A stretch of 12,336 bases of DNA, taken from positions 1 through 12,336 of the forward strand of contig JASLZZ010000048.1 in assembly GCA_030754595.1 (NCBI GenBank). The letters are read 5' to 3'. Below are positions 365 through 12,336 of this stretch, in pieces. The stretch comes from Nitrospinota bacterium. GTDB lineage: Bacteria > UBA8248. The position numbers and the translations under genes are program-made. The notes under the pieces are model-generated. The model had not been told where the DNA came from. It did not search any database and saw only the letters and a program-made list of their open reading frames with translations. Position 1 is the first letter of the stretch. Every line of letters starts with the position of its first letter.

Positions 365-540
365 AATTCCCTGTTCGGTTTCCGGGGTGAAAACCCTGAA
401 TCCCTTTAAACACAGGCGAATCTTGGAGATTTTGGGGAAATAAGCCCTCAAAAACGTAAAAATTCCCTGTATTTTCCCTGTCAAACAGGGAATTTGGCAG
501 AGAAAGGTTTGCGGCTGACTCTCCCCACCGCCAAACAGTC
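365..540 (+). mobile_element. Putative attachment-site/end region of an integrative element, with a tRNA-3'-end-like core
   Basis: TTCCCTG at 367, 463 and 474, inverted at 486-492. Perfect 11-bp IR AAATTCCCTGT(460-470)/ACAGGGAATTT(485-495). CTCTCCCCACCGCCA (519-533) resembles a tRNA acceptor-stem 3' end, flanked by GACT/AGTC. Confidence 0.55.
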
Positions 541-656
541 TCCCCGATTTTTCTCCGGCCCCGGCCTGACGCCCCTTTGTCCTGTCTTTGCGGGGATGCC
601 TCGGATCAACCGTCCACTTTCATATTCTCCGGGGCTGTTCACTTGGCATAAATTGG

Positions 657-693
657 CCTGTGAGTGGTGAATTAGAAATTCGCCATGCACAGG
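657..693. repeat. REP-like palindrome, copy 1
   Basis: CCTGTG-AG-TGGTGAATT-AGA-AATTCGCCA-TG-CACAGG. Bases 669-692 match 8351-8374 at 23 of 24 positions. Confidence 0.8.
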
Positions 694-719
694 ATGGAAT
701 TTTTTCGGGGTACACCCAG

Positions 720-2093
720 CTAATCGTAACAGGCTGAAATCAATTCGGCGGGGCTCGCCATTTCATCCAGATGCGCTACGGCATCGATGATGCGTTGTAT
801 CCCGTCAGGCGGCAGTGCATGTTCAGCGTTCCGGCGAAATTTCTCCTCGACATCTTTTTTTTCCATTGGATTTTCCGGGTTCCCCCAGTTGATGGGCTCC
901 TCCCTCTCCAGGATGCGCCCGTCCGATAGCTTCATCCGGACGCCTCCGTGCAGGTACATCGGAAAACGGTCCGATGCGACGGTGGCGTAGCTGAATTTTC
1001 CGGCGAGTTCGAGGACTTCCGGATCGTTTAGATTCTCTTCCTTGAAGTCATCGAGAGTTGCGTTGCCTTTCGCCGCGGCCAGCGCTACGCAGTAGGGGAG
1101 GCTGAAAAGCGCGGCGTAAGAGGTATTTGGCTTGCGCTTGAGTTCGATCGGCTCGCATACGATGTGGGCGATCGGCTCGGGGATGATGGCCTCGATAGAG
1201 TCGATATTTCCCAGTGCGATACCGGTCTCGCGGACCAAATTTTTTGCCGCATCCATGGTAGCGTGATTGAAATGGCAACAGGGATAGGGCTTGAAGGAGA
1301 TGTTCTGCGTCTCCCACCGCTCGCCCAGGCCGCCCGCCAGGGCTTCGGGGTCGTACTCGGCGTCCTGAACATGAGTGGCGTACAGGCCAAATCGGCCCTC
1401 GAATATCTTTCGCGGGCCGATAAATCCGTGGCCTGCGAGCTGGGTGGCGGTAATTCCCGCGTGGCAGGCCCAGCCGGGGTGAAAGCGTTTCGCCCAGGAG
1501 CCGTCGTCGAGAAATTCCTGGATGCCGGAGGCTTGGCTGCCGACCGTTCCGAGCGCATTGGCTATGGTGGCTGGATCATGGCCCCATAGGCGGCCCGCAA
1601 TCGCCGCGGCTCCGAAGGCGCCGCATATCGGTGTCGCATGGAATCCTTTTGCGTGAAATCCTCCCTCCATGGCGCCGCCCACGCGGGCGATGAGTTCGTA
1701 GCCCGCCACCATGGCCGCAAGAATTTCCCGGCCATTGGCGGCGCACGCCTCTCCCACGGCGATGGCTGTGGGCACCACGCAGGCGCTCACGTGCGTGATG
1801 GAGCCGGTGTGTGTGTCGTCAAAATCGATGCCGTGCACGAGGCTTCCATTCGCCATGGCGGCATGCGCGGCGGGTAATTTATCTCCATGACGCCAGAGCG
1901 TGGCTTGAGGCGTTCCGCCCCAGTCCCGCACCAGCGAGATGATTCCTTCGGCGTAGGGCTCCTCGGTGGACGCAAGCGCGATTCCCAAAGCGTCGAGAAC
2001 GTGGAGCTTAACCTTTTCGATGACCTGGGAGGGGATGTCCTCAAAGCGGAGGTTGGCGGTAAATGTGGAAAGTTTATCGCTCATCGTTTCCAT
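720..2093 (-). CDS. MmgE/PrpD family protein (457 aa)
   Basis: Family motifs HGIDFDDTH, GFHATP, WAKRFHPG, FKPYPCCHFNH, FSLPY and GNPENPM; GGAG RBS at 2101-2104 (minus strand). Confidence 0.95.
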   Translation of the reverse strand: METMSDKLSTFTANLRFEDIPSQVIEKVKLHVLDALGIALASTEEPYAEGIISLVRDWGGTPQATLWRHGDKLPAAHAAMANGSLVHGIDFDDTHTGSITHVSACVVPTAIAVGEACAANGREILAAMVAGYELIARVGGAMEGGFHAKGFHATPICGAFGAAAIAGRLWGHDPATIANALGTVGSQASGIQEFLDDGSWAKRFHPGWACHAGITATQLAGHGFIGPRKIFEGRFGLYATHVQDAEYDPEALAGGLGERWETQNISFKPYPCCHFNHATMDAAKNLVRETGIALGNIDSIEAIIPEPIAHIVCEPIELKRKPNTSYAALFSLPYCVALAAAKGNATLDDFKEENLNDPEVLELAGKFSYATVASDRFPMYLHGGVRMKLSDGRILEREEPINWGNPENPMEKKDVEEKFRRNAEHALPPDGIQRIIDAVAHLDEMASPAELISACYD

Positions 2094-2140
2094 GGATTTT
2101 CTCCGTTTGGTGGATGATTGCCCGTCTCAATCATTGCATG

Positions 2141-3529
2141 TCACGCTTGCGACGCCTGAATTGGGGCGGCAAGCCGTCCCGGAAGAGGTTCCATAGATTC
2201 CATTTGATCGATTTTTTGCGCCACCTCGATGAGATGGATTTGCGTGCCGCTGTCTATGACGTTCCCGGTGACCCACCGGAATTTTTCGGCGACATCATCG
2301 AACCCCATGGGGTTTAGCGGCGAGCCCTTGGGCCCCGGCCGATAGCTGGTATAGGTCTGCCCGCCCCGGGTCCGGACGATGACCTTTCCGGGGAATTGGT
2401 GGGGGTAGATTTTTTCGATCTCGGGATCGACCGTGAAGCGCGCCCTATGCGCCAAGGCAACGACTTCGGAGTCGGAGAAGCGCTCCTCGGAAAATTGGGC
2501 CGGTCCGGCCGCACCGTCCGCCAGCGAGATGGCAGCGCAGTATTCGATGTTCATCTGGGCGCTCAGTGTGGTTGAGGGTTCGTATTTCCAGCTACACTGC
2601 TTCTCAACAACGCTGTGATTGAAAATTTCGATTTCATCCACATCCTCCGGCCTCAGGTTATGCTTTTCGCGGAGTTCCAGGATGGCGTCGATTGTGGAGT
2701 GAGTGCTGCCGCAGCAGCAATAAGGTTTGATGGAAGTGTTTAACATCTCCCAGCGCGAGCCGAGTTCTTCGGTGAGCAAAGAGATATCCCCGGAACCGCT
2801 GAAAGCCGAGATAAAACCGCCGTCGCCGTACTCGAAAACCTGTTTCGGTCCGGTGAAGCCCCGGCTGGCGAGGTCCGCCGCCATGAGGCCGGACTGCGCC
2901 GCCCGGCCGCCGTGAAACCGTTTGGTTTCCGAGCCGTCGCTATTGAAGGCAAACAGGCCCGCGGATTGCGTTCCGGCCAAGCCCAGCGCGTTAGCCGTTG
3001 TTTCCGGGTCGAGTTCGAGCAAGCGGCAGGCCGCCGCTGCCGCACCGAAGGTGCCGCACAGGCCGGTAATATGAAACCCGCGATTTCGGATATTAAGCGA
3101 CCCCGCCGTCAGGCTAGCGCGAATCGACGTCTCGTATCCGGCTACGACGGCCGTCGTGAATGTTTTGCCGTCGGACCCCAAAAACTCCGCTAAAGGGATG
3201 GCGGCGGCGAATACCGGCACACCGACATGGAGCTTGGCGCCGCTGTGGTAGTCATCCAACTCGTAGGCGTGCATCCATGTGCCCAAGCACAGCCCGACGC
3301 TTTCGGCGGGGCCGCGCCAGCCTCGGCCCCAGAGGGACGCTTCCTCCCTGCCTCCCTTGTCCATTACATGCTCGGCGAGAATCCGGCCCGACCGGGTGGT
3401 TGCTCCGTATAGCCCGCAGCCCACGGCGTCCAAAAGAAATTTATTTATTGTAGAACGCAGGTTTTCGGGAAGGGCGTCGAACGTAATCCGGTTGATGAAA
3501 TGGGCAATGTCGAGTGTGGGTGAAGACAT
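2141..3529 (-). CDS. MmgE/PrpD family protein (462 aa from the preferred ATG)
   Basis: Motifs HAYELDDYH, GFHITG, TKRFHGG, IKPYCCCGSTH and GSPLNPM. ATG at 3529 (MSSPTL) has a GGAGG RBS at 3536-3540 and is preferred over the ORF-track start at 3571. Confidence 0.95.
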   Translation of the reverse strand: MSSPTLDIAHFINRITFDALPENLRSTINKFLLDAVGCGLYGATTRSGRILAEHVMDKGGREEASLWGRGWRGPAESVGLCLGTWMHAYELDDYHSGAKLHVGVPVFAAAIPLAEFLGSDGKTFTTAVVAGYETSIRASLTAGSLNIRNRGFHITGLCGTFGAAAAACRLLELDPETTANALGLAGTQSAGLFAFNSDGSETKRFHGGRAAQSGLMAADLASRGFTGPKQVFEYGDGGFISAFSGSGDISLLTEELGSRWEMLNTSIKPYCCCGSTHSTIDAILELREKHNLRPEDVDEIEIFNHSVVEKQCSWKYEPSTTLSAQMNIEYCAAISLADGAAGPAQFSEERFSDSEVVALAHRARFTVDPEIEKIYPHQFPGKVIVRTRGGQTYTSYRPGPKGSPLNPMGFDDVAEKFRWVTGNVIDSGTQIHLIEVAQKIDQMESMEPLPGRLAAPIQASQA

Positions 3530-3552
3530 GAAACGCCTCCCGTCCGGTTGAT

Positions 3553-4950
3553 TTAGGAATTTTTGAAACAACCTGCAATTTCGATGAGTTTCCCCATTTC
3601 GTCCGATGAAAGATTTTCCAACGAATCGCAGAGAGCAATCAATCGTTCGGAGGCGGATTCATCTAGCTGTGACCGCAGGCAGCCCCGGATTTTCTTCAGA
3701 TGCTCTTCCTTGGTGAGCTTGGGCGCTCCCCAGAAGTCTTTCGGACCGTCGCATCGATCCCTGATGCTATCACCGTTTTTGAGTGTGACCGTTATTTCCA
3801 CATGCATCTTGTCCATGCCTATGGGGATGTCTTTGGATTGGACGAATGTGATTTTGCCGAGGAGTTTCTGAATATCCGACTTTTGTAGGCGTTCGTTGGT
3901 GAAGGTATCGATTATGATCTCTCCATCCAGAAGCGCGGCGGCGGCGACGTATTGAAAGCTGAATTTTCCTTCGATGCCGGTTCCGGGCGAGGGCCGATTC
4001 ACATAGTTCATGGCGGGGCCGACGATCTCGACGGATTCGATTTCGGAGGCATCGGAGATTTTCTTTTGGCTATCCAGCGCGGCGGTAATGGCGAAATGGG
4101 AAGGATATTGGGAGGGAAATTGCTTGATGGCGAAGCCGGGGTCTACCATGCGGTAGGGTTTACCGAAACTCAGAAGTGCTTCGAAGTCGAACTCTTCGAG
4201 GAAAAAAGCGTCCCGGTATCCGTTTTCCGCTTCAATGATTGAAGGGTTCCCCGTAAAGCCCCGCGCCGCGAGCATAGCCGATTCCAACCCCAACGAGGCA
4301 GAGTAGCCACAATGAGTGGCCTTGGTCATGGAACCGATGTTGCCGATGAGGCTTCCCGCCCGGGAGGCGGCGATGCCCAGGGCGTTTTGCAGCTGCTCGG
4401 GGCTCAGACCGAGCAGTTGCCCCGCGCCTACGGCAGACCCCATCACGCCCAGGTAGTCCGGCGGATGGTGAACGAGAAGCGCCGGTGCGAGGAGTTTTCC
4501 CGCGAGGTTGAGGCGTCCTTGTATCTCGCAGGCCTTGACGAAGGCGGCGGCGACCTCGCGGCCGTTCGCCTTTTTCATTTCAGCGGCCGCAAGGACCGAG
4601 GGCAGCGAGGGCGAAACCGCGTGGGTTGGAGGCATCCACATCGGCTCAAAATCGAGGATGTGGATCGAAATGCCGTTGACGAGAGCCGCGGATACCGGAT
4701 TGGCCCGAAAACCCATTCCGAGGACGACGGAATCGCCCGTTCCGCCGAGACTGCGAATATGATCCGCCGCGATTCGAGGACCTTCCTCGTGGACGCCTGC
4801 GATCGCGACCGCGATGCCGTCCAGAATTACTCGCTTGGCTACATTGACGGCTTCCTCGGGAATAGAGTCCGAGCCGATTTCGGCGATAGTTCGGCAGAGG
4901 CGTTCAGTGACACCGGTGAGCCGCTCCGGAGTTGCCTTTTTATCTTGCAT
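3553..4950 (-). CDS. MmgE/PrpD family protein, cis-aconitate decarboxylase (ACOD1/IRG1)-like branch (465 aa)
   Basis: VNGISIHILDFEPMWMPPTH, EIQGRL, HHPP, TKATH, AIKQFP, YVNRP, SFQYVA..LLDG and EITVTLKNG..DR.D parallel the recalled ACOD1 sequence. Starts 3 nt after the tcuA-like stop. Confidence 0.9.
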   Translation of the reverse strand: MQDKKATPERLTGVTERLCRTIAEIGSDSIPEEAVNVAKRVILDGIAVAIAGVHEEGPRIAADHIRSLGGTGDSVVLGMGFRANPVSAALVNGISIHILDFEPMWMPPTHAVSPSLPSVLAAAEMKKANGREVAAAFVKACEIQGRLNLAGKLLAPALLVHHPPDYLGVMGSAVGAGQLLGLSPEQLQNALGIAASRAGSLIGNIGSMTKATHCGYSASLGLESAMLAARGFTGNPSIIEAENGYRDAFFLEEFDFEALLSFGKPYRMVDPGFAIKQFPSQYPSHFAITAALDSQKKISDASEIESVEIVGPAMNYVNRPSPGTGIEGKFSFQYVAAAALLDGEIIIDTFTNERLQKSDIQKLLGKITFVQSKDIPIGMDKMHVEITVTLKNGDSIRDRCDGPKDFWGAPKLTKEEHLKKIRGCLRSQLDESASERLIALCDSLENLSSDEMGKLIEIAGCFKNS

Positions 4951-4953
4951 CGA

Positions 4954-6459
4954 TCAATCGTCTCTCGCCGCGGAGGCGGCGTTGGTCCCGCCGATTTTGC
5001 CGAAGACGGCCCCGCGCATCAGCCCCGCGCCGCCGGGGTAGTTGATGTAGAAAAACCCGCCCGTGGCCTCGCCCGTTGCAAAAAGGCCGGGAATCGGCCG
5101 CTCCAGGTGATCGAGCACTTCCGCGTCCGTGTTGATGCGAATCCCGCCGAAGGTGAAGGTGATTCCGAGGGAGACGCCGTAGACGACATAGGGTGGCTCG
5201 TCGATCTTCGCCGCCCAGTTCGTCTTTTCCGGATTCAGCCCCTTTGTGGCCTTCTCGTCCTTCAATGTTGGATCGAACTCGCCTTCCTGGACGGCGGCGT
5301 TAAAGTCATGGAGGGACTGGATGAATTTCGCCTTGCCGAAGCCCATGCGGCCGAACTTTTCATCCACCTTTTCGGCCAGCTCTTCGATGGTGTCCGCCTC
5401 GATGGGAACCCCGGTGCTGTAGCGGGGTTCGAGGAGCGGCACCGTCTTCTGATCGAACACCTGAAACGTGACCGCGTTGCGCTGTTTGAGAATTTCCCGG
5501 CCCATCTTGGCGTAGGTGTAAAGAACCAGATCCTCGCCCTCATCGACGAAGCGCTCGCCTTCGAGATTCAGCATCACCCCATAGAGGTAGGAGAGCCGGT
5601 TCGTCTTGTCGGTGAGATTGAGATCGCCGTAGGTTGGCGAGTCGGAGTCGATGGGCGTCGCGTGACAGCCCGACCATTCCCCATAGCTCTGCGCGCCTAT
5701 GTCGATGGCGGCGCGCGTCAGGTCGCCCGTGTTGAACCGGGTTCCGCGCACCTTGACGAGGCTCCAGTCCGGGCCCATGTAGGAGGTTCGCATCTCGGGG
5801 CTGGCCTGGAAGCCACCGCTGCCAATCACCAGCGCACGGCAGTTGATCGTCCGCTCGCCTTCGGGGCCGCGCACCTCGACGCCCGCCGCTTTTCCGCTAT
5901 TGTCAGTCACGATCCGGTGGGCCCGGGTCTCGTAGAAGACGGGTATATCCGCTTCGTCCAGCAGGCGGAACAGGTTGGCCGAGAGGCCCACGCCCTCGTG
6001 TAGGCTGCGAATCGCGCCGCCGGGGGCGAGCGTGACTTTTTCGGACCCGCTTACGCCGCCGACAACCCGGCTGAACTCGAAGGGCACGCCGAGATCGGCC
6101 ATCCAGCGCACGGTGTCGTAGGAGCGATCAATCAGGACATCGGTGAGTTCGGGGTCGGAGCGCCCGCCCGTCACCCGGGCCATGTCGCCCAGATAGTCAT
6201 CACGGGTGTAGGGTTTGACGATAACGTCGTCCGCGTTGTCATTGTCCATAACGATAGGGAGGAGGTCGCCCGGGCCATTGTAGGTGTGCCGGAAAATGCC
6301 GCCGGTGAAGCGCGTGTTTCCGCCCCGGAGCGCTTTGTCGGATTTCTCGAGGACCGCCACTTTCGCGCCCTCCGCATGCGCCGCGAGGGCGGCGGTGATT
6401 GCCGCGTTCCCGGCGCCGACAACCAACACATCCACTGAATTATTATTAGAATCGCTCAA
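4954..6459 (-). CDS. tcuA: FAD-dependent tricarballylate dehydrogenase TcuA/CobZ-like flavoprotein (501 aa)
   Basis: DVLVVGAGNAA FAD-binding motif, RGGNTRFTGG, GGFQA, KVRGTRFNTGD, WSGCHA, RFVDEG, GITFTFGG and NYPGGAGL..GAVFG. TTG start preceded by an AGGGAGG RBS. Confidence 0.88.
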   Translation of the reverse strand: MSDSNNNSVDVLVVGAGNAAITAALAAHAEGAKVAVLEKSDKALRGGNTRFTGGIFRHTYNGPGDLLPIVMDNDNADDVIVKPYTRDDYLGDMARVTGGRSDPELTDVLIDRSYDTVRWMADLGVPFEFSRVVGGVSGSEKVTLAPGGAIRSLHEGVGLSANLFRLLDEADIPVFYETRAHRIVTDNSGKAAGVEVRGPEGERTINCRALVIGSGGFQASPEMRTSYMGPDWSLVKVRGTRFNTGDLTRAAIDIGAQSYGEWSGCHATPIDSDSPTYGDLNLTDKTNRLSYLYGVMLNLEGERFVDEGEDLVLYTYAKMGREILKQRNAVTFQVFDQKTVPLLEPRYSTGVPIEADTIEELAEKVDEKFGRMGFGKAKFIQSLHDFNAAVQEGEFDPTLKDEKATKGLNPEKTNWAAKIDEPPYVVYGVSLGITFTFGGIRINTDAEVLDHLERPIPGLFATGEATGGFFYINYPGGAGLMRGAVFGKIGGTNAASAARDD

Positions 6460-6588
6460 AACATGCCCTCCCTAGGCGTACGATGGAATAAGCCGCAATA
6501 TTCAAGAAAAAATCTAAGTTGTTGTTTTACGACCAGCTTTTTCAGTAAAGAGGCCGATGAAAAACAATATAACCGGCATAGCCCCCGA

Positions 6589-6655
6589 AGGCTGTTGAAA
6601 TTCGAATGACGGCTCCTTGTCCCGATGAGACGATCGGGAGATGTCGTCAACCCTA
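6589..6655. mobile_element. Possible miniature element or IS-end scar
   Basis: GGCTGTTGAAAT (6590-6601) matches the reverse complement of 6641-6652 (GGTTGACGACAT) at 8 of 12 positions. Internal hairpin TCCCGAT-gagacg-ATCGGGA (6620-6639). Abuts the truncation point of the CoA-transferase gene. Confidence 0.4.
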
Positions 6656-6658
6656 ATA

Positions 6659-7096
6659 TTAAGGAGCAGCGCCATAGCTGCATGTGCCGTCCGGGGCGGG
6701 CGGAGCGAGGGAAACCACGGCTACGTCGAGCTTTCGCGGTCCTTCGAAAAATAGACGGCCGATCTCGTGAAAATATGCGGGGGTGAAATCGGCGTTTCCC
6801 TCCGCCACGGCGTCGCGCATCGACTGGGGTACCAGCGTTGTGTTCAGGCGGATATGCCTAGCCATCTCGGGTCGTGTGTCCGGCGATTTCCCCAGAAGCC
6901 GCATATGTATGAGCTCGACTCCTTCGAGCTTGTCGGCGCGCTCGTAGAGCGCATTCAGGAACGCCACGGGCGCGCTGGCGTTGGCGCTTAAGGCAACCCT
7001 GTTTCCCGATTTCACGAGCTCCGCCGCTTCCCCGGGGGAGCAGACTTTTGCCCGGGAACGAGGGTTTTCCGCGGCGGTGGCCCGTTTCTTTGTCAT
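6659..7096 (-). pseudogene. Truncated acetyl-CoA hydrolase/transferase-family (4-hydroxybutyrate CoA-transferase-like) gene, N-terminal ~145 aa only
   Basis: EAAELVKSGNRV, R.AV.EG.ADF.P.YFHE and LDVA.VS..PP..DG.CSYG are the family's N-terminal motifs. The frame stops right after CSYG, about a third of the usual length. AGGAG RBS precedes ATG 7096. Confidence 0.85.
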
Positions 7097-7216
7097 CGGG
7101 CGATACTCCTGTCCTGGCCCAGCGAATCTTTGGTTGGCTTTCACTACAGGAACGACTTGATTTACCGGCGTTTATAGTACTCCCAGAGGCCCGACTGAAA
7201 ATACTTTTTGGGGCCA

Positions 7217-7268
7217 TAATTTCCGCTAAATAGGCAGGACTGGCGCGCTTCCCGCCATTCGGAAATTA
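7217..7268. terminator. Inverted repeat at the 3' end of the Gfo/Idh/MocA gene
   Basis: TAATTTCCG(7217-7225)/CGGAAATTA(7260-7268) with a nested TGGCG/CGCCA (7241-7257). No clear U-tract. Confidence 0.3.
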
Positions 7269-8303
7269 ACGTTCCTCCTCCTCGATAATCTCTGCAATTT
7301 CTACCGGCTGACCCCGCTCGGCCGAGCATAAGCCTGCCCGAACCACCGCCAGAACGTGAAGGCCCTCCTGGCCACCAACCTCGGGCGCACGGCCCTCTCG
7401 GACTGCTCCAGCGAAATCTTCCAGATTTTCCCCTACTTGCCCTTGGCCAGGGAATTCCTCGAAGGGGACATGCTCCATTTTTTCACCGTCTCTCTTTAGA
7501 ATGGAAACACCGTCCCAACGGTCGTAGTATATGTTCGCTTCGCTGCCAAACGTGTTCAGGGATAATGTGAAGCGTCCTTTTCGGTTTGTCGGACTGATGA
7601 AACTGGAACCAAGAGTACCCAGGAGCCCGGATTCGAACTCGAGCCAAAGAACGGCCACGTCGGGAATTTCCGATTTCGTCATCACCTTACTGAACGCTGC
7701 CGATACCCGGCGAATCGGGCCAAACAGATAGAGCATGTTGTCGATTTGATGTACTGCTACTTGCATCAAGGGCCCGCCGGGGGACCCATCGGTATACCAC
7801 TGCCAGTCATTGGGAGTGTAAAAGAACCCGCGATCATTCGAATAATTGGCTTCGACCATGGCGAGTTCACCCACGACCCCTTCCTGAAGCATCTGGCGGA
7901 CGATGCGCAGGCCACGCGTGAACCGATAGCTGGCATTCACGGTCAACACGACACCCGCCTCTTCACAGGCCCGAATCGCGGCCTTGGCGTCTGAGATGGT
8001 GGTGGTGATTGGTTTATCCACACGGACATGTTTGCCTTGACCTGCCGCCGCGATCGCTTGTTCTGCATGCAAGTTATTGGGTGTCGTGAGAATCACACCT
8101 TCCACTTCGGGATGCTGTAATACTGCCTCGTAACTTTCCTCCTGCTCGCATCCGAATTTTTGGCTGAAGGCCTCTCGCTTAGCCGGCGTTCGCGTGAAAC
8201 AAGTAACCAAATGCAACTTGGGCGAATCCTTGATTAATTCCGCAGTTGTATTGGCCCATCGCCCAAGCCCGACAATTGCGACCTTTAGTGGTTCGGCGTT
8301 CAT
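7266..8303 (-). CDS. Gfo/Idh/MocA family NAD(P)-dependent oxidoreductase (345 aa)
   Basis: KVAIVGLGRWA Rossmann motif, TPNNLH, GKHVRVDKP (variant of the EKP motif) and GG.L....VHQID; GGGAGG RBS. Confidence 0.93.
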   Translation of the reverse strand: MNAEPLKVAIVGLGRWANTTAELIKDSPKLHLVTCFTRTPAKREAFSQKFGCEQEESYEAVLQHPEVEGVILTTPNNLHAEQAIAAAGQGKHVRVDKPITTTISDAKAAIRACEEAGVVLTVNASYRFTRGLRIVRQMLQEGVVGELAMVEANYSNDRGFFYTPNDWQWYTDGSPGGPLMQVAVHQIDNMLYLFGPIRRVSAAFSKVMTKSEIPDVAVLWLEFESGLLGTLGSSFISPTNRKGRFTLSLNTFGSEANIYYDRWDGVSILKRDGEKMEHVPFEEFPGQGQVGENLEDFAGAVREGRAPEVGGQEGLHVLAVVRAGLCSAERGQPVEIAEIIEEEER

Positions 8304-8394: not shown

Positions 8395-9234
8395 CTATTC
8401 CGCTTCCAGCAAAGCAGAGGACGCCAGGAGACTTTTTTCTTTTAGCTTCTCGGGGAGAGATGTGAGCCTCGGGTCCATCGAGCAGCGGATCTGGCAAATG
8501 GCACAGGTGGTGGGGCCACTGTCTGTGTAGGCCATGGACTTGGAGGAAAACAAAAGGTCGGGAAGTTCGCTGAGGTTTTTGTAATGGTCGATGTCATGTC
8601 CAGATCGGCCGGCGGCACAGCCAAAGTGGCTCAGGCCGTTCTCCTCCGAGATGGCGTCCCAGGGGCAGAGCCTCACGCAGAGGTAGCCGCACTTGTCGGG
8701 AAGGCAGAGCTCCCCTTCGAAAAGAGGATCTGGCGGAAGCTCCGCTGTGGTTACCACCGAGCCCAGGCGGACGTTTGCGCCGAACTTTTCTGTGATGAGG
8801 CATCCGCTGAGGCCAATCTGGCCCAGACCCGCGAGCTCGGCCGCGTGCCGCTCGGAGAAAGAGCCCATGAATCGAATTTCGGGCTCCGGCTCCTCCCGGA
8901 CGATTTCGGGTGCGCCCGAGTCTCGGGCCGCGGGCATGGGCATGGTGGTGAAACCCCGGTCTTCTAAGAGGATGGCAAGGCGGTAGGCCGCGAGGTTCAG
9001 AATCTCGTTCAGCCTGAGCCAGCCGAACTGAAGAAAAGAGTAGTTCGGTGCCGTCAGAAGGGTGCCCACGGGTATGCGGACGGCGAAGGAGACGACACTC
9101 CTGGCATCACGAAGCAGATCGCCCGGTCTGTGGCCTTCGGGTGCCCCGGCGAACCGCTCGACGGGAGCCACACCCACGAGGTCTATCCCCGACTCCCGGG
9201 CGAGCTTGGCAACTTCGCATTTGAGTTTTTCCAT
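8395..9234 (-). CDS. QueG/reductive-dehalogenase-like 2x[4Fe-4S] protein (279 aa)
   Basis: G.DLVGVA..ERF..AP.G.RP.D.L..A.SV and SERHAAELAGLG.IG..G.LIT..FG..VRLGSV.T.A. Eight C-terminal Cys (CLPDKCGYLCVRLCP...C...CAICQIRC). GAGGT RBS at 9244-9248. Confidence 0.88.
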   Translation of the reverse strand: MEKLKCEVAKLARESGIDLVGVAPVERFAGAPEGHRPGDLLRDARSVVSFAVRIPVGTLLTAPNYSFLQFGWLRLNEILNLAAYRLAILLEDRGFTTMPMPAARDSGAPEIVREEPEPEIRFMGSFSERHAAELAGLGQIGLSGCLITEKFGANVRLGSVVTTAELPPDPLFEGELCLPDKCGYLCVRLCPWDAISEENGLSHFGCAAGRSGHDIDHYKNLSELPDLLFSSKSMAYTDSGPTTCAICQIRCSMDPRLTSLPEKLKEKSLLASSALLEAE

Positions 9235-9852: not shown

Positions 9853-11271
9853 TTATTTATTCTTTAGCGTTAGCTGTAAGAGTTTGTCGGCGCGATCTTG
9901 CCTGTCGAGGTTGCGGCAGGTCTCGATGATCGCCTCGAACTGCTCCGCCGGTATCGGGATGCCGGGTATGATATCGCGGATACGGCGCGCCTCCTCGTCA
10001 AAATCCCACATGAACTCGCGTCCGGTGGATTGCTTCGTGTAGCTCTTGCCGTCCTTGGTGTGGATAGTTATTCGCGGGCCGAAGAGGGTCATTCGGTGGG
10101 ACGGGATGATCGTCACCCGCTTCATGAGTTCTAGCACCTCGGGCGGGTCGTCCAGGTCGGCCGGGACGGCCGACACACCCGGGACGGCTCCCATGCTTCG
10201 CAGCACGGGGAAGCCGCGTTTTACGGCACCGTACGCAGTGTAGTAAGAGGTTTCGCCCACCCTGGCTTCTCCATCTTCTCGCCGGCTCGGGAAAGCGGGG
10301 CTGGGATACTGTGTTTCGAGCCAGTTCACCACGGCTTCGATACGGTCCACGTCTTTGTGATTGATGTTGTTCTCTTCGCAGAGCTTTGCCGTCACATCTA
10401 CGTGCGCGATGTTGTAGCCGGCGGTCGAGTAGATGCGATAGAGCGTCTCGGTGAACATCCACTTCTTGCCCAGATCGGCGGTGATATTGTCCAGGCTGGC
10501 CTGGGTGTCGCCGGTAAAGCTGTAGGTGAGTTGGCCTTTGTTATTCCCTGCGTAGGCGTGATAGAAACCCGCGTCGCCTTCGAGGACAGTCTCGCCGCCG
10601 ATGTGCCCCTCTCTTGCCAGTGAGACTGCGAGCATGGCGTTGCGTACAGCGGCGCCTTCGCGCAGGGAGTGGCCGCCACTTCGAGGCCCTTCGAGGTTGC
10701 CCCCGGCCAGGTTCACGCAGAGCGCTATCGCGGCGTTCACCTGGTCTTCGTTGAAGCGCATGATCTTCGCGGCGGCGATTGCAGAGCCGAAAATGCCGAA
10801 CACCGGACTGGCGTGGAAGCCGCGTGCCATCACCGTCGGGATGAAGTCGGCCGCCATCCGCTCCATGACTTCGTAGCCCGCAGCGAGGCCTGCGATGAAG
10901 TCCTTTCCGGAGACGCTCTCTGTTTCCGCAGCGACGAAGGCACTCGGGACGATGCATGTACCGGGGTGCATGAGCATGCGGAAGGTGTCCCACTTTCCGC
11001 CAGCCTGCATCAATTCCGCGTTAGCATAGGCGGCTCCGCCCTTTGTCACCTTGGCGCCGTCCACCATGATGGTGGCGCCGTTTTGAACGCCGATTTCTTC
11101 TTCAGCGATTATCTTTACGGCCTGTTGACCGCCCGATGACTGAGAGCCAAGGAGTGCGGACGCGAGGTTCTGGAGGGTGACTCCTTTGGCGCGATCGACC
11201 ACTTCGGAGGGTAGATCTTCATAACCCAGGCCAACCACCCAATGCGCCAGCTGCCGGCTGAGAGATGTCAT
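9853..11271 (-). CDS. Divergent MmgE/PrpD family protein (472 aa)
   Basis: Scaffold motifs YEDLP.EVV..AK, HPG, GYEV, RGFH.SPVFG.FG.A.A and LEG..GFY are present, but the usual HxxDxDD and Lys motifs are altered. AAGGGG RBS. Confidence 0.9.
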   Translation of the reverse strand: MTSLSRQLAHWVVGLGYEDLPSEVVDRAKGVTLQNLASALLGSQSSGGQQAVKIIAEEEIGVQNGATIMVDGAKVTKGGAAYANAELMQAGGKWDTFRMLMHPGTCIVPSAFVAAETESVSGKDFIAGLAAGYEVMERMAADFIPTVMARGFHASPVFGIFGSAIAAAKIMRFNEDQVNAAIALCVNLAGGNLEGPRSGGHSLREGAAVRNAMLAVSLAREGHIGGETVLEGDAGFYHAYAGNNKGQLTYSFTGDTQASLDNITADLGKKWMFTETLYRIYSTAGYNIAHVDVTAKLCEENNINHKDVDRIEAVVNWLETQYPSPAFPSRREDGEARVGETSYYTAYGAVKRGFPVLRSMGAVPGVSAVPADLDDPPEVLELMKRVTIIPSHRMTLFGPRITIHTKDGKSYTKQSTGREFMWDFDEEARRIRDIIPGIPIPAEQFEAIIETCRNLDRQDRADKLLQLTLKNK

Positions 11272-12224: not shown

Positions 12225-12225
12225 T

Positions 12226-12336
12226 TGACCTGCCCCCTCCAAACCGGTCCATGCTGAATGAGATAATTTTCGATACTCTTTCGGTGTGACCGCCCAATCC
12301 AGGGGGATTTAGATGAGCAAGAAGCGCCATACACCC
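12226..12336 (+). mobile_element. Left end of an IS3-family (IS407-like) insertion sequence
   Basis: IRL-like TGACCTGCCCCCTCCAAACCGGTCCA starting with TG at 12226, followed by an RBS and a transposase OrfA start. Confidence 0.8.
12313..12336 (+). CDS. IS3-family transposase OrfA, N-terminus (runs off the window)
   Basis: AGGGGG RBS (12301-12306), then MSKKRHTP, the typical OrfA start (MxxKRHTPEQI). Only 8 codons are visible. Confidence 0.7.

Follow-up and report, generated by a model that had tools for sequence, protein, structure and literature searches.

The window analysed here, 12,336 nt in length, is an entire contig (C48) of a 3.55-Mb metagenome-assembled genome (MAG; 138 contigs, 96.9% complete, 6.4% contaminated) and carries on its minus strand two adjacent genes, one for a flavin adenine dinucleotide (FAD) flavoprotein resembling the tricarballylate dehydrogenase TcuA and one for an MmgE/PrpD-family protein, PrpD_C, resembling the cis-aconitate decarboxylase (CAD) ACOD1/IRG1. 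This pair is a genuine conserved module, kept on one strand in several lineages. We give an even chance to the reading that it would be a catabolic module, independent of both TcuB and coenzyme A (CoA), acting on a substituted succinate or an acid of the tricarballylate type that the cell imports.

The flavoprotein gene (4954..6459; 501 aa, TTG start) and the PrpD_C gene (3553..4950; 465 aa, ATG start) were recognised as open reading frames with family matches and are separated by a spacer of 3 nt (4951..4953), the flavoprotein TGA occupying 4956-4954 and the PrpD_C ATG 4950-4948. These coordinates and the 3-nt stop-to-ATG distance had been given in a preliminary description of the window and were exact when the sequence was re-read; two further MmgE/PrpD genes, PrpD_B and PrpD_A, which come after the pair in the same direction, had not been mentioned there. 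The module leader (6460..6667, minus strand), delimited from the sequence and by blastn against a 94%-identical relative (locus L001), ends at the upstream limit of the block common to both and carries at 6467-6474 the Shine-Dalgarno-like stretch AGGGAGGG, 7 nt 5′ of the flavoprotein TTG at 6459; an ATG close by, at 6465, is out of frame. An antisense open frame of 563 aa (4312-6003, plus strand) crosses the junction of the two genes; as the minus-strand genes have strong family matches, high G+C content most likely accounts for this spurious frame.

Family placement of the flavoprotein and PrpD_C

TcuA is an FAD-dependent tricarballylate dehydrogenase and TcuB an Fe-S electron-transfer protein. 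The flavoprotein shares the PF00890 fold of Salmonella enterica TcuA (TcuRABC; E 9e-35) and matched NF006130 (PRK08274, "TcuA"; E 4.6e-145), passing it at 484 bits against a cut-off of 369; its nearest characterised relative is TcuA, as the preliminary description had proposed. However, it failed the TcuA equivalog TIGR02485 (218.4 bits, cut-off 372.55). As controls, we used TcuAs with TcuB directly downstream from Salmonella pHCM1 (tcuR-A-B-MFS), Burkholderia multivorans, Methylobacterium nodulans and Palleronia, in all four of which TcuB overlaps or abuts tcuA. All four controls passed both models (581-687 bits for TIGR02485), whereas four of four other TcuB-less relatives passed NF006130 only (TIGR02485 239-285 bits); the second TcuA-like copy of this genome and two PrpD_C-linked relatives likewise passed NF006130 and failed TIGR02485. 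Because every TcuB-less relative tested passes NF006130 (437-596 bits), this model does not separate the subfamilies. No match to TcuB (TIGR02484) was found in the window or in the 96.9% complete genome, and TcuB was present in one of five Binatia chromosomes carrying the module, ~190 kb distant from it.

A quick IQ-TREE tree was built from 36 rows, comprising 33 TcuA-type proteins and three outgroup flavoproteins from this genome, after 15 near-duplicate Binatia rows had been thinned from the initial 51. The TcuB-linked TcuAs formed one clade on a long stem, with a support of 100 in the Shimodaira-Hasegawa-like approximate likelihood-ratio test (SH-aLRT), and the window flavoprotein fell into a separate clade of 13 PrpD_C-linked flavoproteins (clade I, SH-aLRT 99); a second, proteobacterial clade of PrpD_C-linked flavoproteins was also recovered (clade II, SH-aLRT 99). 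The window flavoprotein is 31-36% identical to the four TcuB-linked TcuAs and ~35 residues longer, and has no TcuB, TcuC or TcuR neighbours. Since it fails TIGR02485, lies outside the TcuB-linked clade and comes from a genome with no TcuB match, it is, as judged from its sequence, a TcuA relative and not a TcuA ortholog, and the "TcuA" label is wrong for it. This position outside the canonical TcuA clade counts against the proposal of the preliminary description that tricarballylate is oxidised to cis-aconitate and this is decarboxylated to itaconate.

In fumarate reductases, catalytic and carboxylate-binding roles are ascribed to His and Arg residues. The entire TcuA family, the window flavoprotein included, lacks these residues, GITFTF (family signature GITFT(F/Y)) standing for HHTMGG and N-Y (N/G-Y) for the N-R of the carboxylate-binding Arg; the residue roles are partly given in bioRxiv 10.1101/2022.12.26.521950. 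Window-type flavoproteins have Y-T-Y where canonical TcuA has K-R-Y, CHATPI in place of CHAVAID, and an added TDKTNRL segment; CHATPI and TD(K/R)(T/S)NRL are common to both PrpD_C-linked clades and absent from the other subfamilies. The flavoprotein opens directly at the FAD-binding GxGxxG, with no leader sequence, signal peptide or heme domain. Among solved structures, soluble flavocytochrome fumarate reductases and urocanate reductase come closest to it (E 2e-29 to 3e-24). Like TcuA, it is probably a dehydrogenase of a succinate-type C-C bond.

PrpD_C has the two-domain fold of its family (MmgE_PrpD_N, PF03972, 4.5e-58; MmgE_PrpD_C, PF19305, 5.7e-27). Its best sequence matches in the Protein Data Bank (PDB) were mouse and human CAD (E 4e-61 to 1e-56, ~200-210 bits), followed by iminodisuccinate (IDS) epimerase (164 bits, 5e-47) and B. 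subtilis 'IRG1' (121 bits), while PrpD structures gave at most 50 bits (E 1e-10 or weaker); the other three paralogs of the window are less CAD-like (126, 88 and 49 bits). An AlphaFold2 model of PrpD_C from 31 sequences (pLDDT 87) was compared by Foldseek with CAD (7BR9, 6R6T and 6R6U; TM score 0.84, 30-32% identity), IDS epimerase (TM 0.83, 27-28%) and PrpD/MmgE structures (TM 0.61-0.67, 18-19%). PrpD_C lies far below the PrpD/MmgE equivalog cut-offs (TIGR02330, 56.5 against 458 bits; NF006943, 66.5 against 575; NF042438, 67.5 against 950), and an ESM Atlas search gave family-level neighbours only. The earlier statement that PrpD_C is closest to ACOD1/IRG1 thus held, its nearest solved and characterised relatives, by ranked scores and the structure match, being mouse and human CAD.

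Eight active-site residues of human CAD (hCAD) were mapped by Chen et al.: D93, T97, H103, H159, K207, K272, H277 and Y318 (PMC6789909). PrpD_C keeps six of them as D100, H110, H162, K210, K276 and Y316, and replaces T97 by M104 and H277 by Q281; all eight positions are invariant across 30 PrpD_C homologs (48-77% identity). The gate Tyr, Tyr318 in papers, is residue 319 of chain 7br9_A by count of the HMMER alignment. H103, H159, K207 and K272 are common to every known CAD and are also kept in non-CAD family members (PMC6789909), so that this set is not diagnostic of CAD. The Aspergillus CAD keeps four of the eight residues, differing at D93, T97, H277 and Y318, and is still a CAD, whereas the human T97M and H277Y variants show a loss of activity (PMC6789909); for these reasons, M104 and Q281 neither prove nor exclude CAD activity. 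According to PMC12290011, P. aeruginosa Msi (Tyr148) and IDS epimerase (Tyr145) have a second catalytic Tyr, placed five residues ahead of the conserved His. At this position PrpD_C has Ala157, its homologs have mostly Gly, and the four window paralogs have A, A, R and T, in a loop that aligns poorly and in an alignment without an isomerase sequence.

Recurrence of the gene pair and its neighbours

PrpD_C homologs were aligned and the alignment was used for a pattern search, which yielded 80 PrpD_C-type loci; 34 of these carry a TcuA-like gene on the PrpD_C strand. Of the 37 loci flanked by ≥5 kb on each side, 23 have the pair, that is, 17 of 19 at a PrpD_C identity of at least 49% and 6 of 18 below it. 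By record titles, the 34 paired loci come from Binatia (20), Betaproteobacteria (5), Alphaproteobacteria (2), 'Deltaproteobacteria' (2), Gammaproteobacteria (2), Nitrospinota (1) and Thermodesulfobacteriota (1), one being unlabelled. The organism labels of eight MAG contigs look wrong, namely those titled Klebsiella pneumoniae, Enterobacteriaceae or Bordetella parapertussis (L005, L006, L007, L014, L019, L043, L051 and L075), whose genes cluster with Binatia or environmental Betaproteobacteria. A TGA noted in frame within two Binatia PrpD_C matches turned out to be their normal stop codon. Cultured carriers are Paraburkholderia sp. PREW-6R (plasmid NZ_CP155075.1), with the flavoprotein gene at 438630-440024 and a PrpD_C-like gene at 445373-446677, and Paracoccus pantotrophus (NZ_CP038206.1).

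The linkage was also counted in 151 genomes sampled from the class of G051, a Binatia carrier, with ortholog thresholds of E ≤1e-160 for the flavoprotein and E ≤1e-120 for PrpD_C. The flavoprotein ortholog was found in 14 genomes, the PrpD_C ortholog in 13 and both in 12, leaving two genomes with the flavoprotein alone, one with PrpD_C alone and 136 with neither; in all 12 double carriers the genes are adjacent and share one strand, 36-1674 nt apart. In itself, a 3-nt spacer is nothing unusual in an operon; it is the one-strand recurrence elsewhere (34/80 loci; 12 of 14 flavoprotein genomes) that places the pair above chance. Conservation across genomes, which the preliminary description had proposed to check, was therefore borne out in several lineages.

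Among 51 genomes of the window's phylum, the window-type flavoprotein (at least 80% identity) occurs in only four other genomes, two of which have PrpD_C directly downstream of it. The second TcuA-like paralog (44-47% identity) is widespread, and together with the window type gives a match in 35 of 41 other genomes of the family. In this genome the second gene (G000:C116:54935-56428; L081:8936-10429) is 44% identical to the window flavoprotein, scores 563 bits with NF006130 and 257 with TIGR02485, and stands by PAS/GAF histidine-kinase genes with no MmgE/PrpD or TcuB neighbour; its type is far commoner in the family than the window type. By blastn, L001 (94.4% identical) shares only 3289-6667 of the window, which comprises the pair and the first 240 nt of PrpD_B. 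In L001, TctC-TctB-TctA lie directly upstream of the pair and an Rrf2 regulator downstream. In a locus from a record labelled Nitrospinota (L013, 77% nucleotide identity), the four genes are arranged as in the window. The pair thus forms a stable core amid variable surroundings and extra paralogs.

In 22 of 27 clade-I loci, a gene of the ICL/PEP-mutase family (291 aa) lies between the flavoprotein and PrpD_C genes, and its best match is the methylisocitrate lyase PrpB (TIGR02317, 306 bits, just under the cut-off of 354). A CMD-family gene without the peroxidase-type CxxC motif follows PrpD_C in 19 of 27 clade-I loci and is also found in five PrpD_C loci having no flavoprotein. In this AhpD-like protein AEYEY or CDYEY replaces CxxC (L002:7560-8099, L007:7376-7942 and 22 other loci); in Binatia-type loci its linkage to PrpD_C-type genes is tight, and it may be another conserved partner for the IRG1-like enzyme. 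Clade II has a PrpD_B-like gene in five of seven loci.

Most of the following plasmid-borne, TcuB-less relatives of the flavoprotein adjoin an enzyme for alpha,beta-unsaturated acids or a carboxylate transporter. Those in Hydrogenophaga, Halalkalicoccus and Variovorax neighbour, respectively, a LeuCD-like hydratase with PrpF, PrpF, and an MmgE/PrpD gene; in Deinococcus, TctCBA comes after the flavoprotein relative. The relative in Bradyrhizobium guangxiense (L087) stands with ETF alpha/beta genes and a sulfonate-type ABC transporter, and that in Paracoccus versutus pTAV3 (L086) with a ComA-like (phosphosulfolactate-synthase-like) gene and a sulfonate-type ABC transporter; the neighbours at these two loci hint at a role of TcuB-less TcuA-like genes in sulfonated carboxylate metabolism.

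Candidate reactions of the module

We infer the substrate, direction and chemistry of the module as follows. In the first step, as its family suggests, the cytoplasmic flavoprotein would remove two hydrogens across a succinyl C2-C3 bond, yielding an aconitate-, citraconate- or mesaconate-like enoate; the electrons would go not to TcuB but to another acceptor, perhaps ETF or quinone. In the second step, the IRG1-like enzyme would bind the 1,4-dicarboxylate backbone of this enoate through the conserved His/Lys set of the family and convert it through an enolate intermediate. The substrate would be a tricarballylate-type or alkyl-succinate polycarboxylate, and probably not tricarballylate itself.

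According to PMC12290011, the characterised MmgE/PrpD enzymes (2-methylcitrate dehydratase, CAD, IDS epimerase and methylsuccinate isomerase) all share binding of a 1,4-dicarboxylate backbone and a mechanism in which C2 is protonated or deprotonated, and PrpD_C retains their residue set by alignment; from this shared binding and C2 chemistry, hydration, decarboxylation and isomerisation would all be within reach of the family. For the second step we tentatively prefer hydration, giving a hydroxy acid of the malate or isocitrate type, since the PrpB-like lyase and the LeuCD and PrpF analogues point to a hydroxy acid that can be cleaved; a CAD-type decarboxylation with a double-bond shift, likewise tentative, is only slightly less likely. 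In Binatia-type clusters, the PrpB-like lyase would cleave the hydroxy acid to a 2-oxo acid and a carboxylate. In this genome, PrpD_B and PrpD_A would perform additional conversions of the same backbone, for example by epimerisation, isomerisation or hydration. We hold to be doubtful the wider proposition that bacterial IRG1-like enzymes would be the dedicated second step, after a TcuB-less TcuA-like dehydrogenase, of a CoA-free breakdown of free substituted succinates (candidates being methylsuccinate, tricarballylate and analogues), with dehydrogenation, IRG1-like conversion and PrpB-like cleavage in turn; in some lineages the IRG1-like step would then be a true decarboxylation and would give a natural bacterial synthesis of itaconate or of a methylene-succinate like it.

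In the methylcitrate cycle, PrpD and PrpB act on an enoate of the aconitate type and on its hydroxy acid; the Binatia-type clusters likewise pair an MmgE/PrpD enzyme with a lyase of the ICL/PEP-mutase family. Unlike in that cycle, PrpC and PrpE are absent from the module, PrpD_C stays below the PrpD equivalog cut-offs and is 18-19% identical to PrpD structures, and the enoate would come from the flavoprotein dehydrogenase and not from methylcitrate dehydration. The (S)-(R)-methylsuccinate isomerase of Pseudomonas/Cupriavidus and IDS epimerase are MmgE/PrpD enzymes that act on free, non-CoA substituted succinates and are likewise encoded beside a dehydrogenase of the same carbon skeleton (PMC12290011). 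The methylsuccinate clusters use acyl-CoA dehydrogenase, CoA transferase, hydratase and lyase, whereas these CoA-dependent enzymes are missing from the module, and PrpD_C apparently differs from both enzymes in lacking, by alignment of the poorly aligning loop, the second catalytic Tyr. It would share this lack with mammalian ACOD1/IRG1, with which it has in common the fold and D93, H103, H159, K207, K272 and the gate Tyr; unlike the mammalian enzyme, it has Met and Gln for T97 and H277 fixed in the bacterial clade, and its gene is in a predicted operon with the flavoprotein and, elsewhere, the PrpB-like lyase.

Several observations weigh against the catabolic reading and the hydration favoured within it. 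In 46 of the 80 PrpD_C-type loci there is no flavoprotein in the stretch fetched, and counts from related genomes are non-independent. In genome G037 the flavoprotein is followed directly by PrpD_A, and PrpD_C and PrpD_B are lacking; in G049, no MmgE/PrpD gene lies in the ~1 kb after the flavoprotein. The window contains no PrpB-like gene, the best match in the genome being 49% identical and on another contig. Moreover, PrpD_C is much closer to CAD (210 bits) than to PrpD (at most 50), the sole known member of hydratase type, so that on similarity alone decarboxylation would be the better guess.

The route of the preliminary description, in which the flavoprotein would oxidise tricarballylate to cis-aconitate and PrpD_C, as a true CAD, would release itaconate and CO2, is one of several live possibilities; we consider it unlikely, and it is not the most likely of them. 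Conservation of the pair and the likeness to TcuA and CAD stood: the flavoprotein has TcuA as its nearest characterised relative and passes NF006130, and PrpD_C has CAD as its nearest solved relative and keeps six of the eight hCAD residues, including the four all-CAD residues and the gate Tyr, where four suffice for the active Aspergillus enzyme (PMC6789909). Also in its favour are the apparent lack, by alignment, of the second Tyr that is catalytic in the family's epimerases and isomerases, the TctCBA transporter upstream in L001 and the PrpF aconitate-isomerase-family genes by some TcuB-less relatives, which suggest aconitate-like products. The T97-to-Met and H277-to-Gln replacements, however, are invariant in the 30 homologs at sites where the human T97M and H277Y changes bring a loss of activity (PMC6789909). 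Further against this route, the flavoprotein is not a canonical TcuA by TIGR02485, clade and the absence of TcuB, and carries Y-T-Y for K-R-Y; itaconate formation would leave the PrpB-like lyase of 22 of 27 clade-I loci without a role; and the module holds no itaconate-degradation genes, the CoA-transferase-family remnant described below lying outside the conserved block. In addition, cis-aconitate is a normal tricarboxylic acid (TCA)-cycle intermediate, processed by aconitase. As the cycle always supplies it, a dedicated dehydrogenase would be unneeded and its obligate link to PrpD_C unexplained, and the real enoate would be an analogue. The fallback of the preliminary description, that the real substrates are related polycarboxylates, is its part most likely right.

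A reversal of the first step, with the flavoprotein as a soluble enoate reductase (for example, from itaconate to methylsuccinate) serving as a low-oxygen electron sink and the reduced acid made or isomerised by the MmgE/PrpD enzymes, is distinctly unlikely in our estimate. It would agree with the flavocytochrome fumarate reductases and urocanate reductase being the nearest solved structures, with a record title of the closest relative that suggests an oxygen-deficient-zone source and, according to bioRxiv 10.1101/2022.12.26.521950, with the itaconate reductase IrdA being a PF00890 protein and with reductase clades that are active with Tyr for the catalytic Arg. The flavoprotein gene, however, is first in the operon, signal peptide and heme domain are missing from its product, no electron-input protein is encoded next to it, and the transporter and lyase neighbours indicate catabolism. 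TcuA, the closest characterised homolog, reportedly acts as a dehydrogenase in the work of Lewis and Escalante-Semerena. The gene order also speaks against the improbable case that the MmgE/PrpD proteins are epimerases or isomerases that would supply the correct stereoisomer to a stereospecific flavoprotein and not act on its product. Two of the four characterised family activities are of this kind (PMC12290011), IDS epimerase is nearly as close in structure to PrpD_C as CAD (TM 0.83 vs 0.84), and three consecutive paralogs would suit several stereoisomers; against this, the second catalytic Tyr is found in none of the four window paralogs, in that poorly aligned loop, and PrpD_C carries the CAD-type Tyr316. 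Finally, the two genes might be neighbours only by shared descent in related genomes, with no functional coupling, which would be consistent with many loci coming from one class, so that kinship inflates the counts, and with a partner that varies within a genus. This is highly improbable given that the pair occurs in two separate flavoprotein clades and several gene orders, spans Nitrospinota, Binatia, Alphaproteobacteria and Betaproteobacteria by record titles, survives rearrangement on both sides, and in the 151-genome sample is found whole in 12 genomes and split in 2 + 1, with 136 having neither gene.

Other features of the window, occurrence and significance

PrpD_B (2141..3529, minus strand; Pfam N domain 5e-63, C domain 1e-41) likelier starts at the ATG at 3529, which has GGGAGG upstream, than at the mechanically assigned TTG at 3571, which would make it overlap PrpD_C by 19 nt. 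Its best PDB matches are B. subtilis 'IRG1' and IDS epimerase (~1e-31), and a 72% ortholog stands at the same position in L013. PrpD_A (720..2093, minus strand; Pfam 4e-67 and 4e-33) best matches B. subtilis 'IRG1' (6e-45) and has a 79% ortholog in L013 and a 74% ortholog in G037, there right after the flavoprotein. The fourth, divergent paralog (9853..11271, minus strand) has an N-terminal Pfam domain match only; by alignment, His and Tyr replace two family-wide catalytic lysines (the equivalents of K207 and K272) and Gly replaces D93, so it may have lost the family chemistry or gained another.

Upstream of the pair lies a remnant of an acetyl-CoA hydrolase/transferase-family gene (6659..7144, minus strand; 161 aa, N-terminal domain only), which matches positions 8-144 of the 198 of the PF02550 profile (E 3e-08) and leaves 200 nt before the flavoprotein start. 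It is probably outside the module, overlapping the conserved block by 9 nt only (6659-6667); its end coincides with 6667, where the similarity to L001 stops, and resembles a rearrangement breakpoint. A relic of an itaconate CoA-transferase was considered for it and set aside, as it is truncated and outside the block common to L001. Farther upstream are a GFO/IDH/MocA oxidoreductase gene (7266..8303) and, between it and the fourth paralog, a gene for a Cys-rich protein of 279 aa (8395..9234, minus strand) that has no Pfam match and weak matches to the Fe-S region of QueG and reductive dehalogenases (TIGR00276 2.5e-09, TIGR02486 1e-06). These two genes and the fourth paralog were rejected as parts of the module, as they are not beside the pair in L001 and L013. 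A stretch of 53 nt at 12225-12277, outside the shared gene block, is 85% identical to L001:8267-8319 and may be a small repeated element. A scan of 400-7300 gave no promoter-like sites and 7 terminator-like sites against 8.7 expected, and was uninformative.

Nearly intact copies of the window stretch were found in 17 metagenome runs (seawater, marine or vent) of at least nine studies, some of which are possibly the source sample, and an independent DNA contig covers 2000-7271 with three differences. RNA-library contigs from three metatranscriptome runs of two studies matched, at ≥99%, the flavoprotein (5677-5882 and 6108-6433), the leader (6524-6750), PrpD_B (2595-2834) and the remnant region, DNA carry-over being possible; as to co-transcription, none of the contigs from these three runs covers PrpD_C or bridges 4950. 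The genome (G000) holds 11 MmgE/PrpD paralogs, seven TctA-like transporter genes, five ICL/PEP-mutase-family genes and ~20 GFO/IDH/MocA matches. With relatives' record titles reading Nitrospinota and 'ODZ_NOB', this looks like a large organic-acid uptake capacity in a supposed nitrite oxidiser.

In open-access papers and bioRxiv we found no described bacterial route from tricarballylate to itaconate, in agreement with the preliminary description, which knew of none; nor, in the same literature, a described pair of TcuA-like and IRG1-like genes, a CoA-independent route for substituted succinates, or a functional test of bacterial IRG1/ACOD1 relatives. These relatives are numerous and are named 'aconitate decarboxylase' by automatic pipelines (JGI names), and a conserved partner enzyme is a concrete lead to their substrate. 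The TcuA naming of NCBI covers at least two functionally different groups, one working with TcuB and the other TcuB-less and linked to MmgE/PrpD, PrpF or LeuCD-like enzymes. If the proposed function is true, the module would add either a CoA-independent catabolism of substituted succinates or a bacterial path leading to itaconate-like acids; the lineage that has it is marine, and its relatives' records carry a nitrite-oxidiser label. Prokaryotic sequences have been placed next to metazoan IRG1, and bacterial relatives are a suggested origin of the animal gene (bioRxiv 10.1101/2022.06.17.496652); if the proposed function is true and the PrpD_C clade is that origin, the module would also give the ancestral role of an immune enzyme.

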